IMG/VR virus record: IMGVR_UViG_3300036790_000265 | Coordinates: 1 to 64,000 of that record | DNA length: 64,000 nucleotides | DNA from: a virus | Lineage: Duplodnaviria; Heunggongvirae; Uroviricota; Caudoviricetes | Reading direction: 5' to 3' (one strand) | In this document: positions 10,231 through 58,029 of the stretch, piece by piece | How the letters are laid out: each line of letters starts with the position of its first letter | Position numbering within the stretch: the stretch's first letter is position 1 | Program-made: the position numbers and the translations under genes | The notes under the pieces: generated by a model | Databases searched by the model: none | What the model was told of the DNA's origin: nothing | The model's input: the letters and a program-made list of their open reading frames with translations, nothing else

Positions 10231-10236
10231 GGGCCG

Positions 10237-42717: not shown

Positions 42718-43029
42718 GTGACCGGGTTATCCCCGGTGATCGGGCTGATCCAGGTACTCGCTAAGAACTGGTGGATCATGGAAATCGACCGGTTCGGGCC
42801 CGAGCCCGCCTACGTGCAGATAGCCAACTGGCTCAGGCAGCGGATCACCAGCGGCGATCTGCCACCAGGCACCCCCATCCCCAGCAAGAAGCAGATACGC
42901 CAGGAACTCGGCGTCGCCGGCCAGACAGTGGACAAAGCTGTCCAGATACTCAAAGACGAAGGCCTCGTGGCCACCGCCCGCGGCCTCGGCATCTACGTCA
43001 TCGACACCAAGAAGCCCCGCCAGCCATAA
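42718..43029 (+). CDS. GntR-family winged-HTH regulator (short, HTH-only)
   Basis: PAYVQIANWLRQRITSGDLPPGTPIPSKKQIRQELGVAGQTVDKAVQILKDEGLVATARGLGIYV. Confidence 0.75.
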   Translation: MTGLSPVIGLIQVLAKNWWIMEIDRFGPEPAYVQIANWLRQRITSGDLPPGTPIPSKKQIRQELGVAGQTVDKAVQILKDEGLVATARGLGIYVIDTKKPRQP

Positions 43030-43068: not shown

Positions 43069-43752
43069 CTACCCGGCGGTATTCGCGTCCTCCCACTTAC
43101 CGCTCAGCGGGTCCTGCACGATCTCACACGACGCAATGTTGTAGCTCCCGGTCGCCGTCGCGGCCGAGACCAGCTTGCCGTCCACCAGGATCCGGCAGTG
43201 CACCGCCCCGCCGCCATTCAACTGGGCCTCGATGGAGTAGTCGTCGGCGTGCTCGAGCTTCCCGGTCACCTTCATCGGCACGTGGCCGGTCAGCGATGAT
43301 CCCTGCGCGCCGTAGGTCACGTCCGCGGCCGAGCCGGTGACTTCGTAGGTGACCGTGCTCGGCACCGCGGCTGCGGCGCTGGCCGGGTGGCTCGCGGGCG
43401 CACTCGACGGTGTGCCCGCGGCGGGAGTGGTGGCCGCGGCGGGGGTTTTCTTGCCGCTAGCCGATCCCGCAACCGCGGCAATGATGAAGACCACGACCGC
43501 AGCGGCGCAGATCAGCACGATGTTCCGCGTGGTGTGCTTACGCTTTGGCGGCCTCGGCGGCGGCTGGTATCGCTGTGGCGGCAGGTAGCCAGGATCCTGC
43601 GGCGGCGGGTAGCCCTGGCCAGGAGGCTTGTACTGCTGCTGGGGTGGCGGCTGGCGCCCCAGCATATGTGCAGGCGGCGGCCGGTCGCCTTGCTCCCAGG
43701 GTTGCGGAGGGCGGCCGGAACGCTGTGGAGGTAATCCGTACTGATCGCTCAT
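43069..43752 (-). CDS. Pro-rich membrane-anchored protein (single TM, extracytoplasmic domain)
   Basis: PPQ repeats, TM IVLICAAAVVVFIIAAVAG. Confidence 0.5.
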   Translation of the reverse strand: MSDQYGLPPQRSGRPPQPWEQGDRPPPAHMLGRQPPPQQQYKPPGQGYPPPQDPGYLPPQRYQPPPRPPKRKHTTRNIVLICAAAVVVFIIAAVAGSASGKKTPAAATTPAAGTPSSAPASHPASAAAAVPSTVTYEVTGSAADVTYGAQGSSLTGHVPMKVTGKLEHADDYSIEAQLNGGGAVHCRILVDGKLVSAATATGSYNIASCEIVQDPLSGKWEDANTAG

Positions 43753-43824: not shown

Positions 43825-44673
43825 TCATATGATCAGATCCCGCGCGGCCCTGGTCAGCAGTTCCCGCGCACCGGCGCCCGTTTCGGCCGCGGCGAGCAGA
43901 TCGTCCATGATGTTGCCGTACCGCGAAGCCTCGGCGAGTTCCGGCTTCACCTCGGACGTGTAGGTCTCCATGATCACGAGGTCGTCCACCATCAGGAACC
44001 CGAGGATGGGCACCACGGCTAGTTCCCGGCCCGGTGGGATGACCCCGAACGTCACGTTGGCCAGCCCCGTCACCGTGAGCAGCCGGTCGATCTGCGCAGA
44101 CATCACTGGCACCGGGCACGTCAGGTAGCGGACCGCGGCCTCGCAGATCACGAACTCGAACGTCTTACCCGAGTCGTACAGCACTTCCTGCCGGCGCGCC
44201 CGCGCGGCGACCGCTTCCTCAACACCATCCGGGCTTTCCCCGAACCGGCGTGCCGATATCTCCATCTGGGAGCGGGCGTAGTCCGGGGTCTGGAGCAGGC
44301 CCGGGACTAGCAGCGTCTCGAAGTTACGGATGCGGGATGCCCCGCGCACGATCGTGTCGTACTCGGCTTGGAGCGCGGCGTGGCCGCTCCGCAGCCGCAG
44401 CCGCCATTCCCGGTACACGGACTGTGCCTCGTCCAGCAGCGCCAGCAGGTCAGCACGTTCGTCTGGCTGGCCGCAGGCAGTGACCCAGCCTGTGATGTCG
44501 GCCTCGGTGGGCATCTGGCGGCCGTTCTCCAGCTTGGGCACCTTGCTGCGGGGCCACCCCAGCTGGGCGGCAAGTTCGACACCAGTGAGCCCGGCGGTCT
44601 TGCGGATGCGCACCAGGCGCTCCGCGAGGCCGCCGGGCTGATTGAGCCATACTCCAGTCGGCTGCACGGTCAT
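43825..44673 (-). CDS. XRE-family HTH regulator with DUF5753-type C-terminal domain
   Basis: LVRIRKTAGLTGVELAAQLGWPRSKVPKLENGRQ; actinomycete Scr1-like architecture. Confidence 0.7.
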   Translation of the reverse strand: MTVQPTGVWLNQPGGLAERLVRIRKTAGLTGVELAAQLGWPRSKVPKLENGRQMPTEADITGWVTACGQPDERADLLALLDEAQSVYREWRLRLRSGHAALQAEYDTIVRGASRIRNFETLLVPGLLQTPDYARSQMEISARRFGESPDGVEEAVAARARRQEVLYDSGKTFEFVICEAAVRYLTCPVPVMSAQIDRLLTVTGLANVTFGVIPPGRELAVVPILGFLMVDDLVIMETYTSEVKPELAEASRYGNIMDDLLAAAETGAGARELLTRAARDLII

Positions 44674-44682
44674 CCCTGTTGA

Positions 44683-45222
44683 TCAGGCGGCGGCTGACGC
44701 CCCCGCCGGCGTGGCGTAACGGACTGCCAGGTCCCGCCATCGCTGGTACCGGGCAACCTCACCCGGCTCATTGATCAGCGTTTTACCATCGATCTCACCT
44801 GTGGCCGTGAACCGCATCACGATCACGGCCGCGTCGTCGAGCAGCCACCAGTCATGCTCCAGCGGCAACCCGGCCTCCCGCGCGCGGGAGCGTGCCAGGT
44901 AGCTGATCCGCTCCCCCGCCTCGGCGTGCCAGGGATCGGCTGCCATAAGCCACCGCTGGTAGTCGCTCGGCGGCTCGGCGAGGATGCGGACACGGCTCAT
45001 CACGCGGCCTTCGCGGGTGAGCTGGGCCACCTGGTCGAGCCACGGCCGCCACCAGTCCACCTCGAGCGGGTTGACTGTCCCGGTGGCGAGGAAGCTTTCG
45101 AAGTCGGCCCGTTCGTAGTCCAGGGCGTAGGCGTCGAGAGTTTCAAGCCGGAACGCTGAGCGGCTGTACCCGGCCAGGAGCCGGTTGAACTCTTCTTCGG
45201 TGACCGGGGTGCCGGACGTCAC
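44683..45222 (-). CDS. hypothetical protein
   Basis: GTG start in a GTGA overlap. Confidence 0.4.
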   Translation of the reverse strand: MTSGTPVTEEEFNRLLAGYSRSAFRLETLDAYALDYERADFESFLATGTVNPLEVDWWRPWLDQVAQLTREGRVMSRVRILAEPPSDYQRWLMAADPWHAEAGERISYLARSRAREAGLPLEHDWWLLDDAAVIVMRFTATGEIDGKTLINEPGEVARYQRWRDLAVRYATPAGASAAA

Positions 45223-45422
45223 GAGGTCAGGCCGTCGATCACGTCGGCGGGCACCCAAACACCGTCCTCGTCGTTGCCGAGGTCGCGCAGCTGGGCTCGT
45301 ACCTCGTCGGTCAGGCGCTTGCCTTGGATGACGTAGCCGCCTTCGGCGCTGGTCACCTTGTAGCGGGCTGGGCAATTGCCGGTCGCCGAGCTTGCCGTCT
45401 TCCACTGGAACTGGATCTTCAT
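45219..45422 (-). CDS. DUF397-like small protein
   Basis: FQWKTASSATGNCPARYKV resembles the DUF397 WRKSSYS..GNCVEV motif; GGAGGAG RBS. Confidence 0.4.
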   Translation of the reverse strand: MKIQFQWKTASSATGNCPARYKVTSAEGGYVIQGKRLTDEVRAQLRDLGNDEDGVWVPADVIDGLTS

Positions 45423-45480
45423 CGCTGGACTCCTCCGATGTTCTCGGGTGCCTGGTTCCGTTCTCGATTGTTCTTCATAA

Positions 45481-45553
45481 CCCCCCACCGCGTCCAGCCT
45501 GCGGTGGGGGGCCGGAACCTGGCTATCTCAGTGTAGAACATTGGCGAATGTTC
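45481..45553. promoter_or_regulatory. 11-bp perfect hairpin CCCCCCACCGC-n9-GCGGTGGGGGG plus palindrome GAACATTggcgAATGTTC upstream of the xis-like gene
   Basis: Read directly. Confidence 0.5.
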
Positions 45554-45582
45554 TTGACTGTTCTCCACCACGGACTTACGGT

Positions 45583-45840
45583 ATGTCCAGATCGGCAGAA
45601 CCGCCGAGAACACCCAATACGGCGAGATGGGCAGAAGCCTTGGACACTCCCCAGCAGGTCGAGGACGAGCTGCTGCCGCCTGCTGCGGTAGCCAAACGCT
45701 TCGGCGTGGATCCGCGCACGCTGCGCGGCTGGGCGGCGGCAGGGAAGATCAACGCCCGCCGCACGCTCGGCGGCCACCGCCGCTACCGGGCATCCGAGGT
45801 CAGCGCGTTGCTCGCCGCTACAGAAGCGGCCACATCATGA
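45583..45840 (+). CDS. xis: excisionase-family (MerR-like) HTH protein
   Basis: LLPPAAVAKRFGVDPRTLRGWAAAGKINARRTLGGHRRYRASEV. Confidence 0.7.
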   Translation: MSRSAEPPRTPNTARWAEALDTPQQVEDELLPPAAVAKRFGVDPRTLRGWAAAGKINARRTLGGHRRYRASEVSALLAATEAATS

Positions 45841-45924
45841 CTGGCCGCGCAAACAACAGCGGCCCAGGTGTGTCACCACCTGAGCCGCTCACAACCAGAA
45901 CCCCTGCTCGAAAGGGACTAGCCG

Positions 45925-46119
45925 ATGGCAACGGTAGCAATTCACCGCCCCCCAGCCAAGCATCATGTCGCCCGTGTGACCGCCGTCATGCTCCGGCGCC
46001 GGTTCAGGGAGGGCGACCGAGCCCCCTGCCACCGTACGGAACGGCTGGCCGACGACCCGCGGGAGCCCGCGAAGGTGTTCTGCCCCGAGGGCGGCGAACT
46101 GTACCTGCGGACGGCCTGA
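45925..46119 (+). CDS. small hypothetical protein
   Basis: AAAGGGA RBS. Confidence 0.35.
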   Translation: MATVAIHRPPAKHHVARVTAVMLRRRFREGDRAPCHRTERLADDPREPAKVFCPEGGELYLRTA

Positions 46120-46276
46120 TTACCCGAACCTCCCGATCGTCCCTGCCGGGCACCCGGCAGGGACCCGGAAGCCGTCAGGCGCGCGGACGCTGGGGCTTCG
46201 CCCCCGTCGCCCTGGCCGTGGCATCCACTCCCCGGGGTGCCTGCCGCGCGCCTGACGGCCGAAGGAGAACCGCCTG

Positions 46277-46810
46277 ATGGCCGGCAAGAACGGCGCAGGG
46301 AAGGCCCTGTTCGCAGCGTTCATCGTCGCCGGACTGGCCTCCGGAGCGCACGCTGGCGCAAGCACCGGCAGCCACAACGGAGGCGATCCCGACTCGATGG
46401 CGGCCACTCCCGCTGGTGCCGCCAACGCGACGAGCGCCGTCGCCTACGCCAAAGCGCAACTCGGTTGCCCGTACACGTGGGGTGGCACCGGGCCGTGCTC
46501 GGCCGGGTACGACTGCTCGGGCCTGGTGCAGCAGGCATGGGCGGCAGCTGGTGTGAGCATCGAGCGCACCGCTGACGAGCAGTGGAACTCGCTGCGTCAC
46601 ATCCCGGCCAGTCAGCGCGCGGTGGGGATGCTCGTGTTCGCGCCTGGGGCGGACGGTACATGGTCTGCACCGGGCCACGTCGGGATGCTTCTCGGCCGCT
46701 GGAGCGTGATCGAGGCTTACGCCACCGGCTACCCGATCAAGATCGTCTCGCTCAGCACCTTCGGCGCGAAAGCAGGCGGGATCATCGGCTACGCGGAGGT
46801 ACAGCAATGA
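46277..46810 (+). CDS. secreted NlpC/P60-family peptidoglycan endopeptidase
   Basis: Signal peptide; YAKAQLGCPYTWGGTGPCSAGYDCSGLVQQAWAAAGV...GHVGM. Confidence 0.85.
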   Translation: MAGKNGAGKALFAAFIVAGLASGAHAGASTGSHNGGDPDSMAATPAGAANATSAVAYAKAQLGCPYTWGGTGPCSAGYDCSGLVQQAWAAAGVSIERTADEQWNSLRHIPASQRAVGMLVFAPGADGTWSAPGHVGMLLGRWSVIEAYATGYPIKIVSLSTFGAKAGGIIGYAEVQQ

Positions 46811-47250
46811 CCCGCCTGCGCGGGGCCGCCGCCGCGGCCGTCGTCGGGATCACGCTGGCCGCAGTGTCGCAAAGCCACGGCGGCCACCAGGTCTTGACGC
46901 ACGTCGCCGCGGCCATGCAGCAACCGGGCACCAGTTCCACCAGCCCGGCCGCGAACAAGGCTCTCGCGGACCGGATGGCGGCCGCGGCCGGGTGGGACAG
47001 CCGGGAGATCGGCTGCCTGAACGAGGTCTGGCAGCGCGAGTCCGGGTTCCGGGTCACGGTGTGGAACTACCAGGGCGCGGACGCTTACGGCATCCCGCAG
47101 GCGAACCCCGCCGACAAGATGGCCAGCGCCGGCCCGGACTGGCGCACTGATCCCGCGACCCAGATCAAGTGGGGCCTCGGCTACATCAAGGATCTCTACG
47201 GCTCGCCCTGCGGGGCCTGGTCGCACGAAAAATCGCACGGCTGGTATTAG
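46807..47250 (+). CDS. secreted lysozyme-like / transglycosylase-like protein
   Basis: Signal peptide; CLNEVWQRESGFRVTVWNYQGADAYGIPQANP. Confidence 0.5.
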   Translation: MTRLRGAAAAAVVGITLAAVSQSHGGHQVLTHVAAAMQQPGTSSTSPAANKALADRMAAAAGWDSREIGCLNEVWQRESGFRVTVWNYQGADAYGIPQANPADKMASAGPDWRTDPATQIKWGLGYIKDLYGSPCGAWSHEKSHGWY

Positions 47251-47287
47251 GCCAGCCGGCACCAACCAAGGAAGGGAACCACCCGCC

Positions 47288-47539
47288 ATGTCTGGCACCA
47301 CCACCGCAGTTGCACAAAAGCTGCATCCGGTCGTCCTGACCGCGCACAAGGTCACGCTCACCGCGCTGGCCCCGGCTAAGCACGCCGTGACCAACGCGTG
47401 GGCCGACCAGCCTGGCCACCCGCACATGACCCCGAACGAGGGGGCCGTTCTCGCCGGCGTGATCCTGCTCCTCATCGTGATCGGGGTCATCTTCGCCATC
47501 TCCACCGCCATCTCCACCGCCATCGACTCTCGCCGCTGA
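47288..47539 (+). CDS. small membrane protein
   Basis: TM LAGVILLLIVIGVIFAI. Confidence 0.45.
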   Translation: MSGTTTAVAQKLHPVVLTAHKVTLTALAPAKHAVTNAWADQPGHPHMTPNEGAVLAGVILLLIVIGVIFAISTAISTAIDSRR

Positions 47540-47557
47540 TCTTCGAAGGAACACCTG

Positions 47558-47884
47558 ATGGCTACCAGTGCTGCCGACCGCGCGGCCAACCGCGCCGAGT
47601 CGGTCGAGGTTGCCGTCAGGAGGCTCCTGGCCGAGGGCAACCCGCACGCGGCGCTGAACCTGGCGGTCGGGACATTCCAATCCGAGGCCGCCAAGGTCCG
47701 CCGCCGCCGCCCAGCCGACGCGGCGCTCATCGACGCCGAGCTGGCCGGGTCGCTCCTCGCGCTCGCGGCCCAACTCCACACCTACAAGCCGACCCGGCCA
47801 GCCGGACGCTCTCGGGTACCGGGCCCGGCTGACCTGCTCGCGATGCTCGACTCAAGCCTGGGAAAGGGGCAGACTCATGGGTGA
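47558..47884 (+). CDS. hypothetical protein
   Basis: GAAGGAA RBS. Confidence 0.45.
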   Translation: MATSAADRAANRAESVEVAVRRLLAEGNPHAALNLAVGTFQSEAAKVRRRRPADAALIDAELAGSLLALAAQLHTYKPTRPAGRSRVPGPADLLAMLDSSLGKGQTHG

Positions 47885-48371
47885 CCAGCTACCAGCCCTG
47901 CTGAGTTTCCTTCACGATGGGGAGACCTCTCCTGAGCCTGCCGCCCCGGCCGCGCCGGCCACAGACCCGGCGCCGCAGGCCACGCCCGCGGTGGCGTTGC
48001 GGGGTGGCCAGTTGAGCACGGGCGAGCAGGCGCGGGCGATCATGGAGCTGGCGTGGCGTAGCAGTCGCCGCCGCTGGCTGGACACCGTACGCCGGCAGGG
48101 CGGCGTCGTGAACTGGCTGATGTCCACTCAGCCGCCGAGCGTCCTCGACCAATGCGAGTACGCGCAGTCGCGGGCATGGGTTCCAGCCGGCCACGAAGGC
48201 AAGTTCGCCGAGAAAGAGGGCGTGATCTTCCACGCCACGATCGGCAGGGGCGGTGTCGCGCTCGGCAACGCCATCTCGGCTATCTGCTCGCGCCAAACCT
48301 CCTTCTGGATCGCGTTCTTCGCGTTCCTCCTCCTCGCGGTGACTGTGACCGCACTCATTCTGTTCGCCTGA
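47877..48371 (+). CDS. membrane-anchored hypothetical protein
   Basis: C-terminal TM. Confidence 0.45.
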   Translation: MGDQLPALLSFLHDGETSPEPAAPAAPATDPAPQATPAVALRGGQLSTGEQARAIMELAWRSSRRRWLDTVRRQGGVVNWLMSTQPPSVLDQCEYAQSRAWVPAGHEGKFAEKEGVIFHATIGRGGVALGNAISAICSRQTSFWIAFFAFLLLAVTVTALILFA

Positions 48372-48402
48372 CCAGCGGACCACCTCATCGTCTTAAGGAC
48401 TC

Positions 48403-49047
48403 GTGTTTGCCATGACCCCTGTGGCTTTTCTCGGCATAGGCGCAGCCGCCTTCGGCATCTGGACGTGGGCGTACCAGAAGATGCCCCGGTTCACCTGCGT
48501 GATGCTGCTCCTGGCCGGGTTCCTGCTCACGATCGGCGTTCCTGTCCTCCTGGACGCGCTCGCCCGCGCAATCGCCGGTAACGCCGGCACCATCGTTCTC
48601 GGCATCGTTGATCTGTGCGGCCTGTGGAGTTTCTGGCACGAGGTCGTCCGCAGGCACCTGCACCACCGGATCCGGACCCCGGCTCTGTCGCTGGTGCTCG
48701 GGGTGGCGCTCGTGTTGTCGTGGGCCAGCCTGACCAGCCTGCTCAGCGAGGCCGTGCACAGCCCCGTCCAGGCGGGGAGCGCGCTCAGCCACGCCACCAC
48801 TGCGGTACGTTCCGGCCACGCCGCCGCAGCGGTAACCCCGGACAAGCAAATGATCGTCCTGGTCGCCGCGGCTGTGTTGCTGGCTCTGCTGGTGATCGGC
48901 GGGTTCCGGGCCGAACGTGGCGGCCGTGGCCGCAGTTCCGCCCGCGGCGGTGCTAGCCGGGGCGGCAGCCCGGTCGCGAGCAGGATCCCGGTCGCTCCGA
49001 GCGGTGGCCGCCGGCCCGCCGCGCTGCCCGGGGGGAAGCGCCGGTAG
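48403..49047 (+). CDS. polytopic membrane protein
   Basis: 4-5 TM segments. Confidence 0.5.
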   Translation: MFAMTPVAFLGIGAAAFGIWTWAYQKMPRFTCVMLLLAGFLLTIGVPVLLDALARAIAGNAGTIVLGIVDLCGLWSFWHEVVRRHLHHRIRTPALSLVLGVALVLSWASLTSLLSEAVHSPVQAGSALSHATTAVRSGHAAAAVTPDKQMIVLVAAAVLLALLVIGGFRAERGGRGRSSARGGASRGGSPVASRIPVAPSGGRRPAALPGGKRR

Positions 49048-51183
49048 ATGAACAGCCGCTGGCACGACCACGACAACGATCAAGACGACGATCAGGCTGA
49101 GCCGCTGCCGCCGCCGCGGAGCGAGCTTCGGGCGCTCGTCGACCAGCACCGCGCCATCCTCACCCCGTTCGCGTGGATGGCCGCGGCCGAGCTGGTCGCG
49201 CTGACCGCCTGGGGGGTCCTGCACGGACTCGGCAGCCTCCTCCAGGTGATCATCGCTGCCGTGGTCGCGCGGCTGATCATCTGGCGGCGGACCCGGAGCC
49301 GCAGGAAGGGACACGGCAGCCGGACTCTCGTCTGGGCTCTCGGGTCGGCGTGGATGCTGATCGCGACGGTGGTCGGCCCGAGCCTGGTCGGCCAGCTCGT
49401 CCTGCTCGTCCTGCTCGTGTTCGGTGGCTCTATCGCGTCGGCGAAGCACTGGCTCAACAACCGGGTGCACCACACCGGACCGCGCACCCTCCGCGGCGAC
49501 ACCATCGACGACGAGGTCCCACCCGCTGACGATGACGTACCCGGTCGGCCTGTGCTGCATGTGGTCGCCGGGGAGCCGTACTCGAACCCGGTCGTACCCG
49601 CCGCCGGACCTGTACCCGCGAGCGCACCTGCGGGTGCACCCGGGACCGTACCCGCACCCGAACCTCCCTCGGGTGCGGGTACGGTCCAGACGGCCGGGTA
49701 CACCGCACCCGGGACGGGTGCGCTCAAGCCAGGTACGGCCCCGAAAGCACGCACATCGGCGTCGGACAGCATCCGCGAAGCGATCCAGACCGTACTCGAC
49801 GACTTCCAGGTGTCCGCCGACGTGTCGGGGTACGTCCGCGGCCCGGCGGTCACCCGGTACGAGATCGTCCCGGCTCCGGGGGTCAAGGTCGAGAAGGTCA
49901 CCGCCTTGTCCAAAAACATCTCGCTCGCGGTGAAAAGCGGCGCCGTGCGGATCCTGTCCCCGATCCCGGGGAAGTCCGCGATCGGGATCGAGATCCCCAA
50001 CACTGACCGTGAAGTAGTCAGCCTCGGTGACATCCTCCGCTCTCCCCTCGCGGCCTCTGACCATCACCCGCTGCTGGTCGGGCTAGGCAAAGACGTCGAA
50101 GGGCACGTGGTGGTGGCCAACCTCGGGAAGATGCCGCACATCCTGATCGCCGGCGCGACCGGCGCGGGCAAGTCCACCTGCATAAACACGTTGATCGTTT
50201 CCCTGCTGGCCAGGGCCACACCTGAGGAGTTGCGGCTGATCCTGATCGACCCGAAGCGGGTCGAGCTGGCCGCCTACCAGGGTGTGCCGCACCTGCTGAC
50301 CCCGATCGTCACCAACCCGAAGAAGGCCGCTGAGGCGCTGGAGTGGGTAGTCGGCGAGATGGAACGCCGCTACGACGCGATGGCCAGGCACGGGGTACGG
50401 AACATCACCGAATTCAACGTCAACGCGGGCAAGGGCATCCTGGTCGACCGCGAGACGCACAAGCCGGTCAGCCCGTACCCGTATCTGCTGGTGATCGTGG
50501 ACGAACTCGCCGACCTGATGATGGTCGCGCCGCGGGACGTGGAGGATTCGGTCGTCCGGATCACCCAGCTCGCCCGGGCGGCCGGCATCCACCTGGTGCT
50601 GGCCACCCAGCGGCCCAGCGTGGACGTGGTGACCGGCCTGATCAAGGCGAACGTGCCGTCGCGGCTGGCGTTCACCACTTCCAGCCTGGCGGACTCCCGC
50701 GTGATCCTGGACCAGCCCGGCGCGGAGAAACTTGGCGGCCAGGGCGACGCGCTGTTCCTTCCGATGGGTGCCAGCCGGGCGATCCGGCTGCAAGGCGCGT
50801 TCGTGAGCGACGACGAGATCGCGGCGGTTGTGCGCCAGTGCATCGCCCATGCGCCCCGGATGCCGCAACTCGAGCTCGTACCCGAGCCGGTACCAGTCAG
50901 CGGCCCGGCTGAGGCGCCGGTGGATGACACCGAGGTGGAGTTGCTGGCCACGGCGGCCGAACTGATCATCAGTACGCAGTTCGGTTCGACGTCGATGTTG
51001 CAACGGAAACTGCGGGTCGGGTTCGCGAAGGCTGGGCGGCTGATGGACCTGCTGGAGTCGCGGGGGATCGTCGGCCCGAGCGAAGGCTCCAAAGCTCGCG
51101 ACGTACTCAAACTGGCCGAGGAAGCTGCCGAGGTGGCTGATCGCATCCGGGCCGGCGAACCCGAGGTCAGGAGCGCAGGATGA
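49048..51183 (+). CDS. FtsK/SpoIIIE-family DNA translocase (Streptomyces TraB-like)
   Basis: N-terminal TMs; [19 protein letters not shown]; [12 protein letters not shown]; [15 protein letters not shown]; C-terminal gamma wHTH. Confidence 0.9.
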
Positions 51184-51485
51184 CCCCGGCAGAGCTGATG
51201 GCCGCTGGCGTGCTGGCCGTGTTCATCCTGGTGGCCGGCTCGCGCCGGGTCCGGCACAGCGGCGCGGGCGCTGTCGCGTTCCTCGGCGCGGTCGCCTTGG
51301 TCGCGGTCGAGATCGCGAAGCACCAGCAGCCGGCCGCGGCCCGGCCGGTCGTCGTGACCCGCACAGTCGTCGAACACACCACGGCGAGTCACCCGGTGCT
51401 GTCGGGCTGGCCGCTGGTGGTGGTCATCGGCGTGGCCCTGGTGGTCGCGCTCGTCATCATGCTCAACATTCGATCAGGAGAATAG
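51180..51485 (+). CDS. membrane protein
   Basis: ATGA overlap with the FtsK-like gene; 3 TM. Confidence 0.5.
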
Positions 51486-51496
51486 GCAAGATCATC

Positions 51497-51901
51497 ATGG
51501 GACTGTTCGGCCGACGAACCCGCAGTAACCCGGCCGCCGAAGCCGCGCAATGGCAGCCAGAAGAGTGGATCGGGACTTCCTTGCGGTACCTGAACGCTGC
51601 CCTGCCCGGGGCATCGGTCGATATCACCGCCGAGCCTGTCAACTACGAAGGCCCGTGGCGCGTGGAAATCCGGGCCGTCTGGACGGCTCCCGGGTGGCAG
51701 CACGAGCAGGGGGAACTCCTGGCCCTTGTCTACGACACCGACGAAGACGCAGAAGCGGACGCTGCCACGATCATGAAGTGGCTGGGCGAAGGCTGCGCCC
51801 CCGCCGAGTTGCTGCCGGACCTGCATAACGATCAGATGCTTGCACTCATCTGCGGGTGGGACGGTCAGCCGTTCTCCGTGGCCGAAGCCGGAATGATCTG
51901 A
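51497..51901 (+). CDS. tandem paralog 1 (MGLFGRR...WDGQPFS family)
   Basis: Shares N-terminal MGLF.R and C-terminal (F)EWDG.PF with the three following genes. Confidence 0.6.
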   Translation: MGLFGRRTRSNPAAEAAQWQPEEWIGTSLRYLNAALPGASVDITAEPVNYEGPWRVEIRAVWTAPGWQHEQGELLALVYDTDEDAEADAATIMKWLGEGCAPAELLPDLHNDQMLALICGWDGQPFSVAEAGMI

Positions 51902-52344
51902 TGGGACTGTTCAGCAGGAACCGCAGCGCCGCACCCCAGTGGAGGCCGGTGATTGGCGCCAGCGTGGATGTGACCGGTTACGAAGCGGACATGAACGATG
52001 AAGGGCAAGTGCCCGACCGCGCCTACCTGGTGATGTTCGGGATGGTTCATCCCGACGGTGCAGTGATCACTATCTGGACGTACGCCAGCTACACGGGCGA
52101 CGGCCGTTACTGTGTCAGGCTGCGTTACCGGTACACCTCCGAAGCTCACCCTGACTGGTCATTCACAGGGCACGCAGGTGACCCGCTGGAGGAGACCTAT
52201 CCTGACCCAGCCACCGCGGAATACGAAGCGGCAGCGTGGTCCGACAGCCTCGCAAGCGGGAGCCAGCCCACCATGGCCAACCTTCCGGAGGTCTTCGACT
52301 GGGACGGTCAGCCGTTCTCGGCGGCCCCGGCCGAGGTGATCTGA
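51901..52344 (+). CDS. tandem paralog 2
   Basis: TGATGGG junction; ITIWTY..Y...Y..RY core. Confidence 0.6.
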   Translation: MGLFSRNRSAAPQWRPVIGASVDVTGYEADMNDEGQVPDRAYLVMFGMVHPDGAVITIWTYASYTGDGRYCVRLRYRYTSEAHPDWSFTGHAGDPLEETYPDPATAEYEAAAWSDSLASGSQPTMANLPEVFDWDGQPFSAAPAEVI

Positions 52345-52766
52345 TGGGCCTGTTCGGGCGCACCCGCCAGGTCCAGGTGCAGACGGAGACCTGGCAGCCC
52401 CAGCCGGGGATGGGCCAGATCGCCAAGTCCTACGACATGGACGACGACCGCACCGAAGGCGGCAGCGCCTATGGGGTCACATTCGCCTTGGATGGCTCAC
52501 CGGGCGCCCAGATCACCGTCTGGACCTACATCACCCGGGCGCCGAGTCACTGGCCAGGCAAGTACACGGTCGGCTACCGGTGGGATCACATCTACCGAGG
52601 CCAGTCTGTGCAGACGTTCTACGGCGCGGACGAGCAGCCGTACAGGCGCTGGTCCGATTGTGATGAGGCTGCCCGCGCCGCCGCGCGTCAACTCGCCGAG
52701 ACTGTCCGCACCGTCCCGGCCGACGATGACCTGCCGTTTTTTGAGTGGGACGGGAGGCCGTTCTGA
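52344..52766 (+). CDS. tandem paralog 3
   Basis: As above. Confidence 0.6.
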   Translation: MGLFGRTRQVQVQTETWQPQPGMGQIAKSYDMDDDRTEGGSAYGVTFALDGSPGAQITVWTYITRAPSHWPGKYTVGYRWDHIYRGQSVQTFYGADEQPYRRWSDCDEAARAAARQLAETVRTVPADDDLPFFEWDGRPF

Positions 52767-53215
52767 TGGGGTTGTTCAACAGGCAACGGTCGGTGGCCGT
52801 CGAAACTGATTGCGCTGTATGGCAGCCGGTCAGCAGCCAGATCGACACGGTGCCCGGCTGCGAGATGGACGATCAGGGCTGCGCCGGCGACTACGCCTAC
52901 GGTGCCAGATTCGCCCTAGCCAGCGCCCCAGGCGCCACGATCACTGTCTGGTGTTATCCGGTCTACGGACCGCTGGACATGCTCGGGACCTATCAGATCG
53001 GCTACCGGCGCGACTACCACTTCGACCCCGGCGCTGGCCTTCCGTGGCACGCATCAGATTACGACGGAGACGCCGAGTTCTACGAGAGCCTGGATGAGTG
53101 CGCTGCGGTTGCTAGAGAGTGCGCGGTAACGCTCGCGGTGACACGCCGAGATGGCCTCACCTCGGACCCTGACGACAACAACCTGTTCTTCGAGTGGGAT
53201 GGGGTGCCGTTCTGA
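52766..53215 (+). CDS. tandem paralog 4
   Basis: As above. Confidence 0.6.
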   Translation: MGLFNRQRSVAVETDCAVWQPVSSQIDTVPGCEMDDQGCAGDYAYGARFALASAPGATITVWCYPVYGPLDMLGTYQIGYRRDYHFDPGAGLPWHASDYDGDAEFYESLDECAAVARECAVTLAVTRRDGLTSDPDDNNLFFEWDGVPF

Positions 53216-53255
53216 TGGGAGCGGGTGTGGTGTCGAATACGTTTGCGACGACACG

Positions 53256-53275
53256 CCGGCGGGGGAGCCCGCCGG
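53256..53275 (+). terminator. hairpin CCGGCGGG-ggag-CCCGCCGG after the paralog array
   Basis: 8-bp perfect inverted repeat. Confidence 0.35.
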
Positions 53276-53360
53276 GGTGGTCTGCCCTGTTTGACTGGCC
53301 GGGTGGCCGCAGCAACCCCTCCCCTGCCGACCCCGATCGGCCCCTCTCGGGGCTTCTACG

Positions 53361-53410
53361 CGCGGGTATACGCACACCCGCACACCCGCACACGCGTATG
53401 CGCGCGTAGC
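53361..53410. repeat. three 8-bp direct repeats CGCACACC/CGCACACC/CGCACACG flanked by an imperfect inverted repeat (GTATACGC...GCGTATGC)
   Basis: Read directly; candidate cis site (clt/iteron-like). Confidence 0.5.
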
Positions 53411-53465
53411 ACCGACCGACCGCGATTTTCAAGCATCCCCGCCCTGTAGAACCGAGGAGACCCCG

Positions 53466-54401
53466 GTGGACACCGGCAAGTTCATCTCTTTCATCTCTCG
53501 GCACGTCGGCCGCGAGCGCCTGGCGGCCATCTGGAAGCGGCGCCCGCAGCGGACCCGGCCCGCGCCGGGCACCATTTCTCCTGGTGCGAAGAAGGCGATC
53601 CTTGCGGCCACCGCCGGCGTGGTGACCGCGGTGGCGTCGTTCGCGGGGATCCAGTCGTACAGCCATATCTACTGGCTGGCCGCGACTCACCGGCAGGACC
53701 GGTTGGACTCTGCCCTGGCGCCTCTGTCGGTGGACGGCCTGATCGTGGCGTTCTCGCTGGTGATCTTGTTCTTCTCCGTCACCGGCCGCCCAGTGCCGTT
53801 CCTGGCTCGCTGCGCCCTGTGGCTCGGCGTCGGTGTCACCGTCGCCGCGAACGTCGCGTTCGGAATCCCGGCCGGGATCATCGGCGCGCTGGTGTCGGCG
53901 TGGCCAGCGGTCGCGTTCGTGCTCTCAGCCGAGGGCCTGATGATCCTTGTACGCGCGGCGACGGGTACGCGCATCGCACCCGCGCACTCGAGTGCACCCG
54001 AACCGGGGTACGATTCGGCCGCACCTGTACCCGTACCCGTACCCGGAGGCGCGCTCCGCACTTTCGAACCCGCACCCGCTGCACCCGTACTCGACACCAC
54101 CGCCGAACCCGCGTCTGTACTCGCCAGCGCACCCGCTCAGCGTGGCCGCACTCAGCGAACTCGACAGGTGCAGCGCACCCCGAACGGAGACTCGGCCGTA
54201 CCCGACTGGGCGACGACCTACCCGGGGGCGTACGCCAACCGCCACATCCCGTCAATCCGCGTGATCCGCGACAAGATGGGTGTCGGCCAGTCCACGGCGC
54301 AGGTCCACCAGGCCCATTACCGCGCCCAACTCGACGCAGAAAGGGGTCGCGGCGACGACGCGGAACAGGAGGGCGAGCCGGCGATGGGCGCCGCCTCGTA
54401 G
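53466..54401 (+). CDS. DUF2637-like membrane protein with C-terminal HTH
   Basis: GAGGAG RBS + GTG; FAGIQSYSHIYWLAATHRQDRLDSALAPLSVDGLIVAFSLVIL; 4 TM. Confidence 0.5.
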   Translation: MDTGKFISFISRHVGRERLAAIWKRRPQRTRPAPGTISPGAKKAILAATAGVVTAVASFAGIQSYSHIYWLAATHRQDRLDSALAPLSVDGLIVAFSLVILFFSVTGRPVPFLARCALWLGVGVTVAANVAFGIPAGIIGALVSAWPAVAFVLSAEGLMILVRAATGTRIAPAHSSAPEPGYDSAAPVPVPVPGGALRTFEPAPAAPVLDTTAEPASVLASAPAQRGRTQRTRQVQRTPNGDSAVPDWATTYPGAYANRHIPSIRVIRDKMGVGQSTAQVHQAHYRAQLDAERGRGDDAEQEGEPAMGAAS

Positions 54402-54500: not shown

Positions 54501-54809
54501 TCAGGCCGGATCGGGCTTGCTCGGCAACTTGGCCTCGATCAGAGCCAGGATGCGGGCGGTCTCGGTGCCCGCTTTCTTGACCGCGGCGACCGCCGCTACG
54601 ACAGCCGGGGTCGCGGCCGGGTCGAGGGTCTTGGCCAGATTCTCCAGCGTGTCCGCGACCGCGGCCGCGCGGGTCTCGTTCGCCTTCGCGTACTCGCCGA
54701 CGTGCTCGAGTACATCCTTGACGGCGACCAGGCTGTCGATGACCTCGGGTACGAGGTGCTCCTCCACTCGTTCGCGCAGGCTCTCGATGATGGCGTCGAT
54801 GTGCAGCAT
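54501..54809 (-). CDS. hypothetical helical protein
   Basis: ORF. Confidence 0.4.
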   Translation of the reverse strand: MLHIDAIIESLRERVEEHLVPEVIDSLVAVKDVLEHVGEYAKANETRAAAVADTLENLAKTLDPAATPAVVAAVAAVKKAGTETARILALIEAKLPSKPDPA

Positions 54810-54877
54810 GGTTGTGGTTCCTTCCGGGTTGGGGTGCGGGCGTCCCGCAGGGGGTGTACTCGGGGTTCGGACAGGGG

Positions 54878-55603
54878 TCAGGCCGCGATCTGGTCCAGGT
54901 CGGCCACGAGCGCGTCGTAGGCCACGCCGCGGCCGTCTCCGTGGTCGAGCTCGCCGGTCATCACGGCCCACGCCTCGGTGGCCATGAAGAACCACGCCGG
55001 GTAGGTGATCCGCTGCACCTTCCCCCACGTGACCGCGTACAGGTGGTGGTCGTCGTAGCCGACAACCGGGATGCAGTGGCCACCAGCGACGGGGCTCAGC
55101 AGGTCTTCCAGCGTCCACGCGCCACCGGCCGCGAACTTCTGCTGCATCGCCTGCGTGACCTTGATGCCGGTGTAGGAGAAGTCGTACAGGTTCACCACCG
55201 ACTGGAGGGTGGCGATGTCCTGCGGGCTGAAGTGGGTGAACGCGCCCACGGTGTGCCCGTAGTAGCCGTGCTGGCGGACGTAGCCCAGGAAGGCGGACAG
55301 GACGACACCGACGTCCTGGCCCTTGTTGTAGGCCAGGTAGTAGCTCACGGCCTGCTCGGCGGTGGCGAAGCTTTCCTGCTCGGCGGTGACCGCGGCACCG
55401 GCCATGAAACCGTGCTCCAGGCCAGCGACGCCACAGTCGCCGTACTGGTCGTTGCCGAGCATTTCCCAGTCGGCGACCGGGGGGGCCGCGATGCTGGTGG
55501 GTGGCTTGGGTAGCGAACCGGCGACGTAGTGGCTGAGCGGCTTGAGGCCGACTGGTATCTGGCCGGGCAGGCAGCCGAGTTTGAGCGACGCGATTTCAGG
55601 CAT
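54878..55603 (-). CDS. papain-like (C1-type) cysteine peptidase-like protein
   Basis: GNDQYGDCGVAG (Cys), GGHCIPVVGYDDHHLYAVTWG (His), GGGAG RBS. Confidence 0.5.
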   Translation of the reverse strand: MPEIASLKLGCLPGQIPVGLKPLSHYVAGSLPKPPTSIAAPPVADWEMLGNDQYGDCGVAGLEHGFMAGAAVTAEQESFATAEQAVSYYLAYNKGQDVGVVLSAFLGYVRQHGYYGHTVGAFTHFSPQDIATLQSVVNLYDFSYTGIKVTQAMQQKFAAGGAWTLEDLLSPVAGGHCIPVVGYDDHHLYAVTWGKVQRITYPAWFFMATEAWAVMTGELDHGDGRGVAYDALVADLDQIAA

Positions 55604-55692
55604 GGGTGTACTCCCGGGTCGAGGGGCGAGGTTGAATACGCAGCAGGCCTGGTCGGGCCGGCGCGTGAAGGTGGAGCGGGAGAAGAAAGGGT

Positions 55693-56193
55693 TCAGGCGG
55701 TGATGGCCAGCGGCACCATGCCGGGCTGGCGGGCGAGGTCGGACGGCCGCACCTGGCACGGCTGGCCGCGGTCGCACAGCCAGTTGAGCCCGGCTGCGGC
55801 CCCGCACTCGGTGGCGTACTGCGAGCAGATCAGCGCGTGATCAGCCCGGGAGTAGTGCAGCAGCCACTTCCAGTGGATGCCGAGGTCTTCCAGGCCGAGG
55901 TCGGCGAGGTCGGGGAAGTTGTAGACCGTGCCGACACGGTGTAGTGCAGCTGCGGTGACCTGCCCGCGTTGCTTGCTGGTCATCGGCTGGAGCGTGTTGA
56001 TCATGGCCCGGCAGCCGGCGTACTCGCTGAGTGCGGCGACCCGCACCCCTGCAGAGGGGACAGCCTCAGCGATCTGGCCGTTCCCGAGCGAGATGGCCAC
56101 GTGGTCGTAGGGGCTGTGGGTGGCCCACTGGATGAGCTTCCCGCACCAGCCGGGGACCTGGATGACGATGTAGCGGCCGGCCTCGACGTCCAC
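55693..56193 (-). CDS. hypothetical protein (possible permuted papain-fold hydrolase)
   Basis: His...Cys order (YDHVAI...LICSQY). Confidence 0.3.
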   Translation of the reverse strand: MDVEAGRYIVIQVPGWCGKLIQWATHSPYDHVAISLGNGQIAEAVPSAGVRVAALSEYAGCRAMINTLQPMTSKQRGQVTAAALHRVGTVYNFPDLADLGLEDLGIHWKWLLHYSRADHALICSQYATECGAAAGLNWLCDRGQPCQVRPSDLARQPGMVPLAITA

Positions 56194-56197
56194 CGGC

Positions 56198-57166
56198 TCA
56201 GGCCGCCTCTGGCTGCTCGGCCGCGGCCTGAGCGAGGCGGGCGGCGGTCGCGGCCTTGGTCTCGGTGTAGACGGTCGCGGCGACGTAGTGCGTGCCGGTG
56301 TCTTCCCGGTACACGCAGGCGCCTTCGACGCCGGCCGGGATGGTGAGCACGGGCCAGGTCCCCTGCGGGTCCACGGTGACCGCGACCGGGTCGAGGTCGG
56401 TGCCGTGCCAGTTCACCGACAGCGACGCGGACGGGAACGTGCCCGAGGAGCCGAACACGGTCGTGAACCGGATCGCGTTGGCGCCGTCTGGGATGGCGAT
56501 GGGCGTGGGGGTGCCCTTGGGCAGTAGCAGCATGGTTGGCTCCTCCTGGTCGAGCACGGCAAACGGAATGGACGGCGGCGGTGGCGGGTCGGTGTGGGTC
56601 TCCGTGTAGGTGGCGAGCCAGGCGCGCAGGTCGTCGACGGTGCCGTTGAACACGTCGAGATCGACGGGGCCGCTGATCGAGTACTGCCAGAACCGCCACG
56701 TCTTCCACGGCCCGACCGGGCCTGGTGGGACGTCACCTGGCCACGTGGCCCACAGGTCATATCCGCCGCAGGACCACAGGCCCTTGGCGACCGACAGGTC
56801 GGTGTAGACGAGGACTGGGCAGTGTGGACCGGCCAGGTACGCGGTCCGGTCGCAGAACGCCTTGACGGAGGTGTCGGTGACTCCCGGGTAGTCCGACGCG
56901 ACGACCGCGAGCATGTCACCCGGGCGCAGGCCCCGGGCTTTGACCGTGGCGACGAAGAAATCCGCCTGGGCTTCGGCTGACGCGTCGGTGAGTTCGTGGT
57001 AGGCGCCGCGGGGGATGTTGGCGCGGGCGATACCGGCCCAGTTGTCGGTGAACTTCTCGTCGACGTAGTCGGGTCCGTTGGTGGCCTTGCACCATCCGAA
57101 GTTCTCGCCGGCCCAGGTGGTGACTGCCTGGTAGTCGGACCGGTCTTGACCGTGTGCGCTGGTCAT
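56198..57166 (-). CDS. GH25 muramidase (endolysin LysA-like) with C-terminal domain
   Basis: GQDRSDYQ...CKATNGPDYVDEKFTDNW...GAYHEL matches GH25 DxSxxQ / KATEG / YHF motifs. Confidence 0.75.
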   Translation of the reverse strand: MTSAHGQDRSDYQAVTTWAGENFGWCKATNGPDYVDEKFTDNWAGIARANIPRGAYHELTDASAEAQADFFVATVKARGLRPGDMLAVVASDYPGVTDTSVKAFCDRTAYLAGPHCPVLVYTDLSVAKGLWSCGGYDLWATWPGDVPPGPVGPWKTWRFWQYSISGPVDLDVFNGTVDDLRAWLATYTETHTDPPPPPSIPFAVLDQEEPTMLLLPKGTPTPIAIPDGANAIRFTTVFGSSGTFPSASLSVNWHGTDLDPVAVTVDPQGTWPVLTIPAGVEGACVYREDTGTHYVAATVYTETKAATAARLAQAAAEQPEAA

Positions 57167-57183
57167 GGGCACCTCCTCGGGGG

Positions 57184-58029
57184 TCACGCGGAGCATTGGG
57201 CGCCGACCGACTGGAGCGCGGCCAGCGCGGCGGCAGGAGGCGGGAAGACGTATTCGTGTTGGCTGCCTTCACCGCCTTGCCCCCAGAACGTGGCGATCAA
57301 GGTCCCGTTGCGGCTGGTCAGCCAGTCCCAGCAGGAGGTGAACCAGCCGCCGGTCGGGTCAATGCTGTTGGTTTCGCTGATGGCCGGGCGGGCGTCCGGG
57401 GCGACGGTCAGGATGTCTTGCCACGCCTGCCCGAACACGGCCTCGGGGGTCGAGTTGCCGTCCGGGTCGTAGCCGTCCATCGAGTACCAGCCCAGCCCAG
57501 GGCAAATCCACGGCGTGACGTCCTGACCAGCCCGGACCGGACTCGTCGAGATGCATTCGCCGTACAGCACGCCCGGGTTGACCTGCTGCACCAGGTTGTG
57601 CAGGTACCCGTGCAGGTCGGTGAGCTGGGCAGCGGACGAACCGGACAGCGATTGGTACGGGCCACCTGGCCGGTTCGCTTCCTGCCAGCCGGTCAGCCAC
57701 GACCCTTCCGGGGCCTGCTCGATGTAGGCGCTCAACTGCGACTTGAGCGTCCCGGCCAGGGTCATGGCCGGGTCCGGGTCGAAACACACCAGCGCGGTAG
57801 CCCCGGCCGGGACCGGGTTAGCCGGGTTACCAGGCCATTTCACGGGGACGCCGTTGCCGCTGCTGTCGGCGAACACCTTCACCCAGGTCAAGCCGTCCAG
57901 CGACGGGGAAACCGCGGCGTAGGCGGTCAGGTTCACCCCGAACGGGACCCGGACGCTCGCCGACGCTTCCGCGGTCGAGGAGGTGCCGGCGGCCGGGTCG
58001 TCGACCTGGACTGGGACGGTGAGGATCAC
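57184..58029 (-). CDS. hypothetical protein (possible hydrolase)
   Basis: ORF. Confidence 0.4.
   Translation of the reverse strand: MILTVPVQVDDPAAGTSSTAEASASVRVPFGVNLTAYAAVSPSLDGLTWVKVFADSSGNGVPVKWPGNPANPVPAGATALVCFDPDPAMTLAGTLKSQLSAYIEQAPEGSWLTGWQEANRPGGPYQSLSGSSAAQLTDLHGYLHNLVQQVNPGVLYGECISTSPVRAGQDVTPWICPGLGWYSMDGYDPDGNSTPEAVFGQAWQDILTVAPDARPAISETNSIDPTGGWFTSCWDWLTSRNGTLIATFWGQGGEGSQHEYVFPPPAAALAALQSVGAQCSA

Follow-up and report, generated by a model that had tools for sequence, protein, structure and literature searches.

Phages are generally regarded as spreading by one route and conjugative elements by another, and one locus in a tailed-phage genome raises the question of whether a single element can carry the means for both. 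The DNA analysed, referred to here as the window, is a 64,000-nucleotide stretch of a viral genome (IMG/VR virus record IMGVR_UViG_3300036790_000265, positions 1–64,000; Caudoviricetes). At positions 45583–54401 it holds an unbroken array of plus-strand genes, on the opposite strand to the phage genes on either side, which the original prediction had described as a Streptomyces-plasmid-like transfer and spread block inside a phage-like element: either a chimeric phage-plasmid or two nested or adjacent elements. The reading favoured here, drawn from sequence comparison and held at roughly even confidence, is that the block is an intact FtsK-dependent double-stranded DNA (dsDNA) transfer and spread module resident in a temperate siphovirus-like prophage. 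The whole would be a chimera of a phage and an actinomycete integrative and conjugative element (AICE), possibly a ‘conjugative’ prophage.

Genes were assigned by frame plots of the GC content at third codon positions (GC3) and by Pfam, PHROG and NCBIfam profiles, with a hydropathy scan for transmembrane (TM) segments. The minus strand holds nearly all genes of 4.8–40.7 kb and 54.5–64 kb. The GC content is approximately 68% across the whole window, with no compositional break at the block, whose genes are all intact with coding-type GC3 values of 0.75–0.89. Identical DNA is carried by public Logan contigs of SRR11833918 (L083 and L094), an independent assembly in which the module genes are likewise intact and identical, and which extends the view by 10 kb. 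Nucleotide searches revealed no similarity between the window and known phages, and against known plasmids the FtsK motor was the sole match (approximately 76%).

The central gene of the block (49048–51183, +) encodes a membrane-anchored FtsK-type dsDNA translocase of 711 residues, composed of alpha (PF17854, 8e-26), motor (PF01580, 2e-68) and gamma (PF09397, 2e-22) domains, with at least two TM segments; both Walker motifs, A (GATGAGKS) and B (DELADLMM), are intact. Of the predicted TraB/FtsK-like translocase with a gamma domain, the FtsK part stands, as all three domains score above cut-off, but the protein is not of the TraB type: the NCBIfam plasmid_TraB model (NF041214) gives 66.6 bits against a cut-off of 800 and covers only the P-loop core, residues 364–555. 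It also scores below the cut-off of the NCBIfam FtsK model NF007615 (401 versus 1566 bits) and, unlike most chromosomal matches, has no match to the FtsK_4TM domain (PF13491). Its N-terminal 215 residues are 28–36% identical to those of most element-type relatives (20–23% for three) and approximately 10% identical to chromosomal FtsK, which at that level of identity is unrelated in this part. The motor is approximately 75% identical to both element-type and chromosomal FtsK, and the alpha (66–72%) and gamma (77–83%) domains are slightly closer to chromosomal FtsK of the Streptosporangiaceae, the host family, than to other element copies. In the gamma core, 51 of 52 positions match the chromosomal proteins of that family, and the DNA-loading specificity of the translocase may be that of host FtsK.

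Set against chromosomal Streptosporangiaceae FtsK (820–950 residues), the window protein therefore shares alpha, motor and gamma domains at 66–83% identity and an essentially identical gamma recognition region, but is shorter, has a short unrelated N-terminal membrane part and lies in a mobile-element operon. Full-length relatives share 54–59% identity with it, and the element-specific N terminus is rare, with 12 cluster representatives among 1.84 billion proteins at E ≤ 0.001. By these comparisons the translocase is a mobile-element FtsK that lies outside the Streptomyces TraB family. The second-best database match, P0002, is a protein of 1180 residues in which protein-kinase domains are fused to FtsK alpha, motor and gamma. 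The Logan contig L083 ends inside the motor-coding region, at about nucleotide 50,640; k-mers shared with host ftsK could be the cause of this break.

Every gene of the predicted set was found on the plus strand where the prediction had placed it, with corrections only to the type of the translocase and of the first HTH protein. Upstream lie two secreted hydrolases. The first is an NlpC/P60 peptidoglycan endopeptidase (46277–46810, +; PF00877, 2.9e-16) with a signal-peptide-like hydrophobic N terminus, which is kept in the related loci L025, L005, L008, L019, L080 and L085. The second is an SLT/Apf-type lysozyme-like hydrolase (46807–47250, +), whose start overlaps the NlpC stop (ATGA) and which matches PF01464 exactly at the Pfam cut-off (21.3), a transglycosylase family (phrog_12661) at 6e-28 and the NCBIfam Apf-C-terminal-like domain NF052397 at 105 bits. 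Four small proteins follow at 47288–49047, three of them with TM segments, in line with the predicted small membrane proteins: an 83-residue single-TM protein (47288–47539, +; GC3 0.87; TM residues 53–71); a 108-residue basic protein, o108 (47558–47884, +), 48–55% identical in L025, L005, L023, L002 and L085; a 164-residue C-terminally anchored protein, o164 (47877–48371, +; TM residues 145–163), 32–51% identical in L025, L023, L002, L008, L001, L019, L084 and L085; and a 214-residue basic membrane protein, m214 (48403–49047, +), with four TM-like segments and a weak DUF6524 match. A word-index search with o164 returned only the match to itself and is uninformative. The m214 protein is kept in L005, L023 and L002 and is SpdB2-like by topology only.

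Downstream of the translocase gene, a 101-residue protein with three TM segments by hydropathy (51180–51485, +) precedes the expected four-paralogue array (51497–53215, +). Its tandem acidic proteins of 134, 147, 140 and 149 residues are encoded by translationally coupled genes with overlapping TGATG junctions and are 33–34% identical to par2, the first sequence of their alignment. Their predicted fold is a beta-sheet-plus-helix domain (pLDDT 86.9), for which comparison with the PDB gave no convincing structural match. The last gene of the module (53466–54401, +) encodes the anticipated DUF2637 protein, with four TM segments and a basic, helix-turn-helix (HTH)-like C terminus; it matches PF10935 at 2e-8 (34.7 bits, above the gathering score of 22.8) and has no match in the isolated phages of the collection.

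The first gene of the module (45583–45840, +) encodes a BldC-/Xis-like HTH protein of the MerR type (MerR 2.7e-10; HTH_17 1.1e-9). An HTH protein had been foreseen at this place, but as an excisionase, and the excisionase model TIGR01764 gives 25.6 bits, below its cut-off of 28.8. Against the NCBIfam BldC family (NF033787) the protein scores 74.5 bits (cut-off 77), and it is 50–51% identical to the products of BldC-family genes, annotated as such by PGAP, at the head of the transfer operons in the plasmids pSROS01 and pAGRA3207_1; it looks more BldC-like than excisionase-like. Between this gene and the hydrolases are an uncertain 64-residue basic open reading frame (ORF; 45925–46119, +), called on GC3 alone (0.80), and a strongly structured intergenic region (46125–46275, +) with an 11-bp hairpin and a 16-bp perfect inverted repeat. 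The DNA fold of the latter is predicted at −52.8 kcal/mol (z = −5.1), a stability that none of 200 shuffled sequences reached.

Synteny was assessed by tblastn of the window proteins against fetched loci. The set of NlpC/P60, SLT, o108, o164, four-TM protein, FtsK and one or two paralogue copies, often with a GntR gene and an XRE/DUF6879 gene pair alongside, recurs in the IMG/VR loci L025, L005, L023, L002, L008, L001 and L019, and also in L080/L081, L084 and L085; the window has four paralogue copies against the one or two of these relatives. In L001, L005, L023, L025 and L084 the module is followed directly by replication-type genes (DUF3631 or AAA_25), and in L023 a tyrosine integrase gene is also beside it; by gene content these loci are AICE-like elements. 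L080/L081, a contig of 91–95 kb, has ParA and a DnaG-like primase next to the module and is on that account plasmid-like.

Plasmids of the Streptosporangiales and allied orders provide a second set of relatives. pSROS01 (NC_013596), pAGRA3207_1 (NZ_CP059573) and pVMKU (NC_015409) have FtsK motors 62–67% identical to the window translocase and a BldC-like protein approximately 50% identical to that of the window. In pSROS01 and pAGRA3207_1, a GntR gene is divergent from an operon that opens with the BldC-family gene and ends in FtsK, and DUF2637 genes are present in the transfer operons of pSROS01 and L084. These plasmids differ from the window in that their FtsK proteins are of 811–907 residues with long N termini, and in being plasmids, not phages; the NlpC, SLT, o108, o164 and paralogue set was not found in them by tblastn. 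Homology and synteny with AICE-like loci and plasmids thus bear out the claim that this is a gene set of actinomycete conjugative plasmids and AICEs, and they support its identification as an FtsK-dependent transfer and spread gene set. The narrower label ‘Streptomyces-plasmid-like’ is not supported at the sequence level, given the low TraB score and the Streptosporangiales-type relatives. At E < 1e-10, moreover, the only matches of window proteins to the Streptomyces plasmid-prophage pZL12 and its relative pSLE1 were GntR (in pZL12) and an exonuclease (in pSLE1), with one marginal pZL12 match at 3e-4.

In Streptomyces, the apparatus that transfers and spreads dsDNA consists of TraB and the Spd proteins and is controlled by the GntR regulator TraR; the translocase alone is essential for transfer, GntR repressor and translocase form a Kil-Kor pair, and the Spd proteins, including a pore-forming four-TM protein, bind peptidoglycan and mediate intramycelial spread (PMC4447253). 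The functional logic of the TraB–Spd systems of pSVH1 and pIJ101 is that of the block: a hexamer in the membrane pumps DNA, which it recognizes by a C-terminal winged-helix domain, and with it come a repressor of the GntR type, proteins that interact with peptidoglycan, a membrane protein with four TM segments and small genes that overlap. The TraB–Spd systems differ in recognizing an 8-bp TraB recognition sequence (TRS)/clt, for which the window has candidates only, and the window adds dedicated secreted hydrolases. Its translocase has no sequence match to the classical TraSA/TraB type. AICEs, too, integrate site-specifically and carry a Tra protein with an FtsK/SpoIIIE domain, a Kor-type regulator of the GntR family and small spd-like genes that are translationally coupled, but they are typically 9–24 kb long, against a phage carrier of at least 80 kb, and the window module has no Rep, integrase or att site of its own. 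The FtsK proteins of isolated actinophages (Mycobacterium Omegavirus/cluster J; JuicyJay gp193) share the motor, at approximately 50% identity over residues 213–598, but are solitary soluble motors of 442 residues with no TM segments, gamma domain, or hydrolase, membrane-protein or DUF2637 partners. The FtsK-like gene of JuicyJay adjoins a repressor gene.

A regulatory arm lies upstream of the module. The GntR regulator announced for 42.7 kb is present as a winged-helix protein at 42778–43029 (+; ORF open from 42580; PF00392, 3.8e-14); its likely start at 42778 gives 83 residues, comprising the winged helix only, and it is a candidate Kor/TraR-like regulator. GntR genes flank the module in L080, L023, L008, L001, pSROS01 and pAGRA3207_1. 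On the minus strand follow a proline-rich single-TM protein without a family match (43069–43752) and then a divergent three-gene operon. The first gene of this operon encodes a 67-residue protein (45219–45422, −; GC3 0.85; an upstream GGAGGA resembling a ribosome-binding site), and in L085 a 64-residue gene occupies the matching position. The other two encode a DUF6879 protein (44683–45213, −; ORF open to 45405; PF21806, 2.6e-47) and an XRE-type HTH regulator with a DUF5753 domain (43825–44673, −; PF19054, 1e-29, and HTH_31). The XRE/DUF5753 gene is syntenic with the module in L085 (66% identity), L005, L012, L022, L017 and L003, and the DUF6879 gene pairs with it in each of these.

Immediately before the BldC-like gene, an operator-like inverted repeat, AGAACAT-N6-ATGTTCT, can be read over a promoter-like TTGACT-N17-TACGGT (45535–45582, +); the palindrome is unique in the window, with 0 copies expected by chance. 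The surrounding divergent control region (45430–45620) holds five TGTTCT half-sites and a G/C-rich hairpin at 45481–45512. Left of the arm, a 140-residue protein (40886–41308, +) is 37% identical to L001 positions 832–1059, and L001 has the same order as the window: homologue of the 140-residue protein, GntR, XRE/DUF6879, o164 and FtsK. As this common order starts at the 140-residue protein, the imported segment would extend over approximately 40.9–54.4 kb. Module and regulatory arm (from approximately 40.9 or 42.6 to 45.5 kb) are taken here as one unit, which occupies an opposite-strand slot where the late (tail-lysis) operon has ended and the early operon has yet to begin.

The carrier is the integrated genome of a tailed phage of a high-GC actinomycete. 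At its left end, the 3′-truncated reading frame of a host major facilitator superfamily (MFS) transporter (1–155, +) runs up to a predicted attL junction at about nucleotides 114–155. Window codons 1–41 (WMQMAAQSWLVLTLTH...LLLAPYGGV) are 56–58% identical to annotated MFS transporters, and the similarity stops at ‘GGV’, residue 40–41. The Logan contig L094 begins exactly at nucleotide 114, a break that would be consistent with an att branch point (att variants) in the assembly graph. Directly after the truncated frame lies a large serine recombinase gene (156–1676, +; Resolvase, Recombinase and Zn_ribbon_recom domains), which is likely to encode the prophage integrase. A Cro-type HTH gene and the gene for an Xer-like tyrosine recombinase (2035–3033, +; Phage_integrase and Phage_int_SAM_1 domains; the same gene was called on L094) come after it. 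Recombinase genes occur in the window only here, at 156–3033, at the prophage end and approximately 40 kb from the module. The only tRNA call in the window (tRNA-Gln, 60877–60958, 82 nucleotides, ARAGORN) was considered as an att site and rejected: no tRNA is recognized by Rfam anywhere in the window, and the call sits within a long DUF6424 ORF, upstream of its Pfam match, and is probably a false positive.

On the other side of the module, as the original prediction had it, phage genes adjoin. The end of the late operon (54501–57196, −) is convergent with the module and encodes a 102-residue protein, a phrog_19005 protein, a C92-like amidase and a GH25 endolysin (56198–57196, −; GH25/phrog_291 match); a terminator-like hairpin lies at 54426–54413 (−). 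To the right of the endolysin gene are genes without assignment, a DUF6424 gene and then, in tail-fibre position, a gene for a 709-residue protein with no family match (61852–63981, −). The DNA beyond 64 kb, proposed as the place to look for further virion genes, can be read on L083, a 29-kb contig that encodes exactly this 709-residue protein and whose proteins are 100% identical to those of the window where the two overlap. Past nucleotide 64,000 it carries, in order, genes for proteins of 378, 1680 and 163 residues and a 1114-residue tape-measure protein (PF10145). The 163-, 1680- and 378-residue ORFs are without a family match and are assigned as minor-tail genes by position only; the 1680-residue protein has no match among the isolated phages of the collection. 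A tape measure, an endolysin and a serine recombinase abutting a truncated MFS gene are what marks a prophage, and the best reading of the carrier is a temperate prophage, siphovirus-like and at least 80 kb long, its structural genes known as far as the tape measure. Genes for terminase, portal and major capsid protein were not seen in the DNA covered; in window coordinates they would be expected past approximately 80 kb.

The only detectable phage relative is L088, with 59% identity in the phrog_19005 protein, for which two relative loci were found at that identity. In L088, the slot after the lysis genes is occupied by opposite-strand glycosyltransferase and GH16 genes and an integrase gene; this is the usual lysogeny/moron slot. 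Family-2 glycosyltransferase genes also adjoin the FtsK module in L042 (15173–17179), as they accompany the GH16 gene in L088 (11476–14384), and are possible lysogenic-conversion cargo.

Of the alternatives, the one that survives best, although it is unlikely, is that a decayed AICE of the L023/L001 type is nested in the prophage with its integrase and replication genes lost, leaving the tra/spd genes as passenger DNA that would at most mobilize other DNA. The closest syntenic relatives have DUF3631/AAA_25 genes, and L023 a tyrosine integrase gene, directly downstream of the module, where the window has none, and the block is opposite in strand to all flanking phage genes. Yet no boundaries of such an insertion were found. 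Direct repeats of at least 18 nucleotides are absent anywhere across the block; the longest exact direct repeat between 40.6–46.3 and 53.2–55.9 kb is 13 nucleotides, at chance level (shuffle mean 12.8, maximum 15). A second pair of att sites delimiting 42–54 kb, which by the original prediction would turn the chimera into two elements, was therefore not found. A 41-nucleotide, 76% match between 41673 and 54581, from repeat searches with seeds of 14 and 8, was discarded as an att pair because it is at noise level. There is no recombinase gene inside or beside the block, and tblastn with the Rep and Int proteins of the relatives (DUF3631, AAA_25, integrase) found no trace of them in the window. 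Rep-type, ParA and ParB Pfam families had no match among the 60 window proteins scanned, a set that includes part of the small ORFs.

Against decay, approximately 15 consecutive genes and four regulators are intact with coding-type GC3, with no Rep or Int pseudogene fragments, no att-like repeats and no GC discontinuity, and the growth of the paralogues to four copies argues for ongoing selection. Under the operational definition of AICEs (Ghinet et al. 2011), an FtsK/SpoIIIE-domain Tra is present (PF01580), and no Rep within the element or integrase of its own beside att repeats was found. Having no integrase, Rep or att, the module would depend on the phage serine recombinase. The lack of repeats and recombinase, the intact genes, the four paralogues and the slot seen in L088 are the reasons for favouring a module captured into the lysogeny/moron slot. 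The ‘chimeric phage-plasmid’ of the original prediction is thus upheld as a chimera of phage surroundings and an element-type module, but not in the extrachromosomal sense of a phage-plasmid, as the left end of the element adjoins a broken MFS gene, next to a serine recombinase, and no par or rep gene was seen.

If the module was captured in this way, its working can be proposed as follows. Transcription would start at a promoter of its own, at approximately 45.55 kb, and would not rely on the early or late operons; the regulators upstream and at the head of the module (GntR, BldC-like and XRE/DUF6879) would hold expression down, after the Kil-Kor pattern of TraB and TraR. The NlpC/P60 and SLT-like enzymes would open the peptidoglycan at hyphal contacts or cross-walls, where the FtsK hexamer, loaded on dsDNA through its gamma domain, would pump the excised circular phage genome into the neighbouring hypha. 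As the gamma domain is of the host-chromosome type, chromosomal DNA may also be pumped. The Spd role, in which the DNA is carried onward through the septate mycelium, would fall to the small membrane proteins together with the four acidic paralogues and the DUF2637 protein. Two ways of transmission would then be open to the phage, by virions and by conjugation-like transfer. That a temperate tailed phage of a mycelial actinomycete is in this way self-transmissible without virions, possibly mobilizing host chromosomal DNA, is a tentative and rather doubtful proposal.

Several observations weigh against a functional transfer module in a prophage. The translocase fits the plasmid TraB model only in its P-loop core, and the small block proteins have no demonstrable homology to named Spd proteins. 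The replication-type gene found downstream in relatives (and in L023 also the integrase gene) is missing, which fits a decayed nested AICE as well; an insertion by a serine recombinase with a two-bp core, or an old decayed insertion, is possible. The prophage, its phage genes seen only as far as the tape measure, could be defective, and taking the early (5–40 kb) and late (beyond 54.5 kb) regions as one phage is the simplest reading, with no syntenic relative linking them. The candidates for a transfer origin are also poor. A cluster of GTACCCG motifs at 49537–49701 (+; four direct, two inverted) lies in the linker-coding part of the translocase gene, where the rare GTA codon is reused, and a second lies at 53962–54198 in the DUF2637 gene. 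Both are low-complexity coding DNA, and they are kept only as weak candidate clt sites because they are not conserved across the relatives.

A different use of the same genes would be to serve the infection cycle, by moving replicating phage DNA across the cross-walls of a single mycelium or securing the genome in spore compartments. Thoma et al. proposed exactly such a role for the SpdB2 homologues that occur on actinophages (PMC4447253), FtsK-like motors that stand alone are frequent among actinophages (156 records from Mycobacterium phages and 23 from Gordonia phages), and the gamma domain of the host-chromosome type would suit it. The block runs opposite to both early and late operons, however, with its own kor-type regulators, which fits expression in the prophage state or autonomously better, and the whole gene set, secreted hydrolases included, is that of non-phage AICE-like elements and plasmids. 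This role is accordingly rated as quite unlikely.

Another possibility is that two elements lie side by side, a large integrative conjugative element at 0.1–54.4 kb (with the recombinases, DNA-metabolism cargo and the FtsK module) and a separate, possibly defective prophage from 54.5 kb. The early region runs from 40.7 to 4.8 kb, all on the minus strand, and holds phage early and DNA-metabolism genes. Their products are a Cro-like HTH, a RecT-like protein and an exonuclease; DUF5131 (Gp37/Gp68) and DUF6349 proteins; a C5 methyltransferase that contains an intein, and a methylase of the SpoU type; a UvrD-type helicase, an SPFH protein and DpdA; and a HerA-like ATPase, another protein with an FtsK-gamma domain, RtcB and a Thg1-like protein. 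The RecT-like label comes from inspection of the sequence only; the sole Pfam match is sub-threshold and unrelated, and a search for relatives of the protein found none. That no relative was found linking these genes to tail and lysis genes, that both integrase genes are at the far left, and that genes such as those for DpdA, RtcB, HerA and the methyltransferase could be the cargo of an island would all suit two elements. What makes this improbable is that no integrase gene, att site or repeat was found at 54.4–54.9 kb, that the region has typical phage early functions (the RecT-like protein, exonuclease, DUF5131/Gp37-Gp68, Cro-like HTH and intein-containing methyltransferase) whose genes share the orientation of the late genes, as one phage genome would have it, and that no Rep or Par was found among the proteins tested.

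That the prophage expresses the block as an island for anti-phage defence or superinfection exclusion is scarcely credible: the block does sit in the slot where prophages usually hold defence or moron genes, and the PADLOC SspH/mad8 models match the FtsK motor, but these matches cover only the generic FtsK/HerA ATPase, no other block protein matches a defence family, and it is the transfer regions of plasmids and AICE-like elements that share its gene order.

The early region has further features of its own. A DNA-translocase-like pair consists of a 586-residue HerA/DUF87-type ATPase with repeated HTH-like segments at its C terminus (11645–13405, −) and a 213-residue protein with an FtsK_gamma domain (13615–14256, −; 1.3e-9). 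The C5 cytosine methyltransferase gene (29801–32857, −; an ORF of 1018 residues) is split by an intein with Hint, intein-splicing and LAGLIDADG domains, and the SpoU methylase gene lies at 33916–34410. Genes for RNA repair and DNA modification at 8278–11409 and 20483–21304 (−) encode a Thg1-like protein (PF04446), an RtcB ligase (2.6e-117) and DpdA (4.8e-102); no QueC/D/E-type partner was identified among the neighbours scanned. A DUF7666-domain gene (25667–26515) contains six tandem 27-nucleotide units at 26141–26343, encoding a nine-residue peptide repeat. The 14-bp palindrome GGTGTATATACACC occurs five times (20036, 21738, 21762, 28860 and 28908; 0.02 expected), as two exact copies and three with two mismatches, all in the early region and for the most part close to gene boundaries; a phage regulator probably has its operator in this motif.

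The experimentally characterized precedent for one element with two transmission modes is pZL12/phiZL12 (GQ919031; Zhong et al. 2010). Like the window, it is a tailed-phage genome with a GntR-controlled operon ending in an FtsK/SpoIIIE translocase: in its record, the GntR gene pZL12.80 is divergent from the operon pZL12.79c–71c, which adjoins structural (head) genes. Its conjugal transfer requires the main tra gene together with two genes next to it (PMC3583192), and PhiNon1 of Nonomuraea has been described as reminiscent of it. The two are analogous, not homologous. pZL12 is an extrachromosomal ParAB plasmid-prophage of Streptomyces with a TraB-type translocase, whereas the window element is chromosomally integrated via a serine recombinase, with no par or rep gene seen, and its FtsK (alpha-beta-gamma)-type translocase is accompanied by NlpC/P60, SLT, the paralogues and DUF2637. 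pZL12 is the one characterized exception among actinomycetes, and the window shows the same idea built independently, from an integrated prophage and a Streptosporangiales-type module.

Should the proposed self-transmission be real, the prophage would be a conjugative element in its own right. Surveys of phage-plasmids look for relaxase and type IV secretion system genes (CONJscan) and so are not designed to detect prophages with FtsK-type transfer; if the module is functional, current pipelines for phage-plasmids and for integrative and conjugative elements would miss them. The locus offers a defined gene set (o108, o164, the four-TM protein, the acidic paralogues and DUF2637) for what dsDNA transfer needs beyond the translocase, outside Streptomyces. 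With a functional module, such prophages could pass along a mycelium or from strain to strain with no need of lysis and regardless of receptors, and chromosomal DNA of the host might be mobilized with them.

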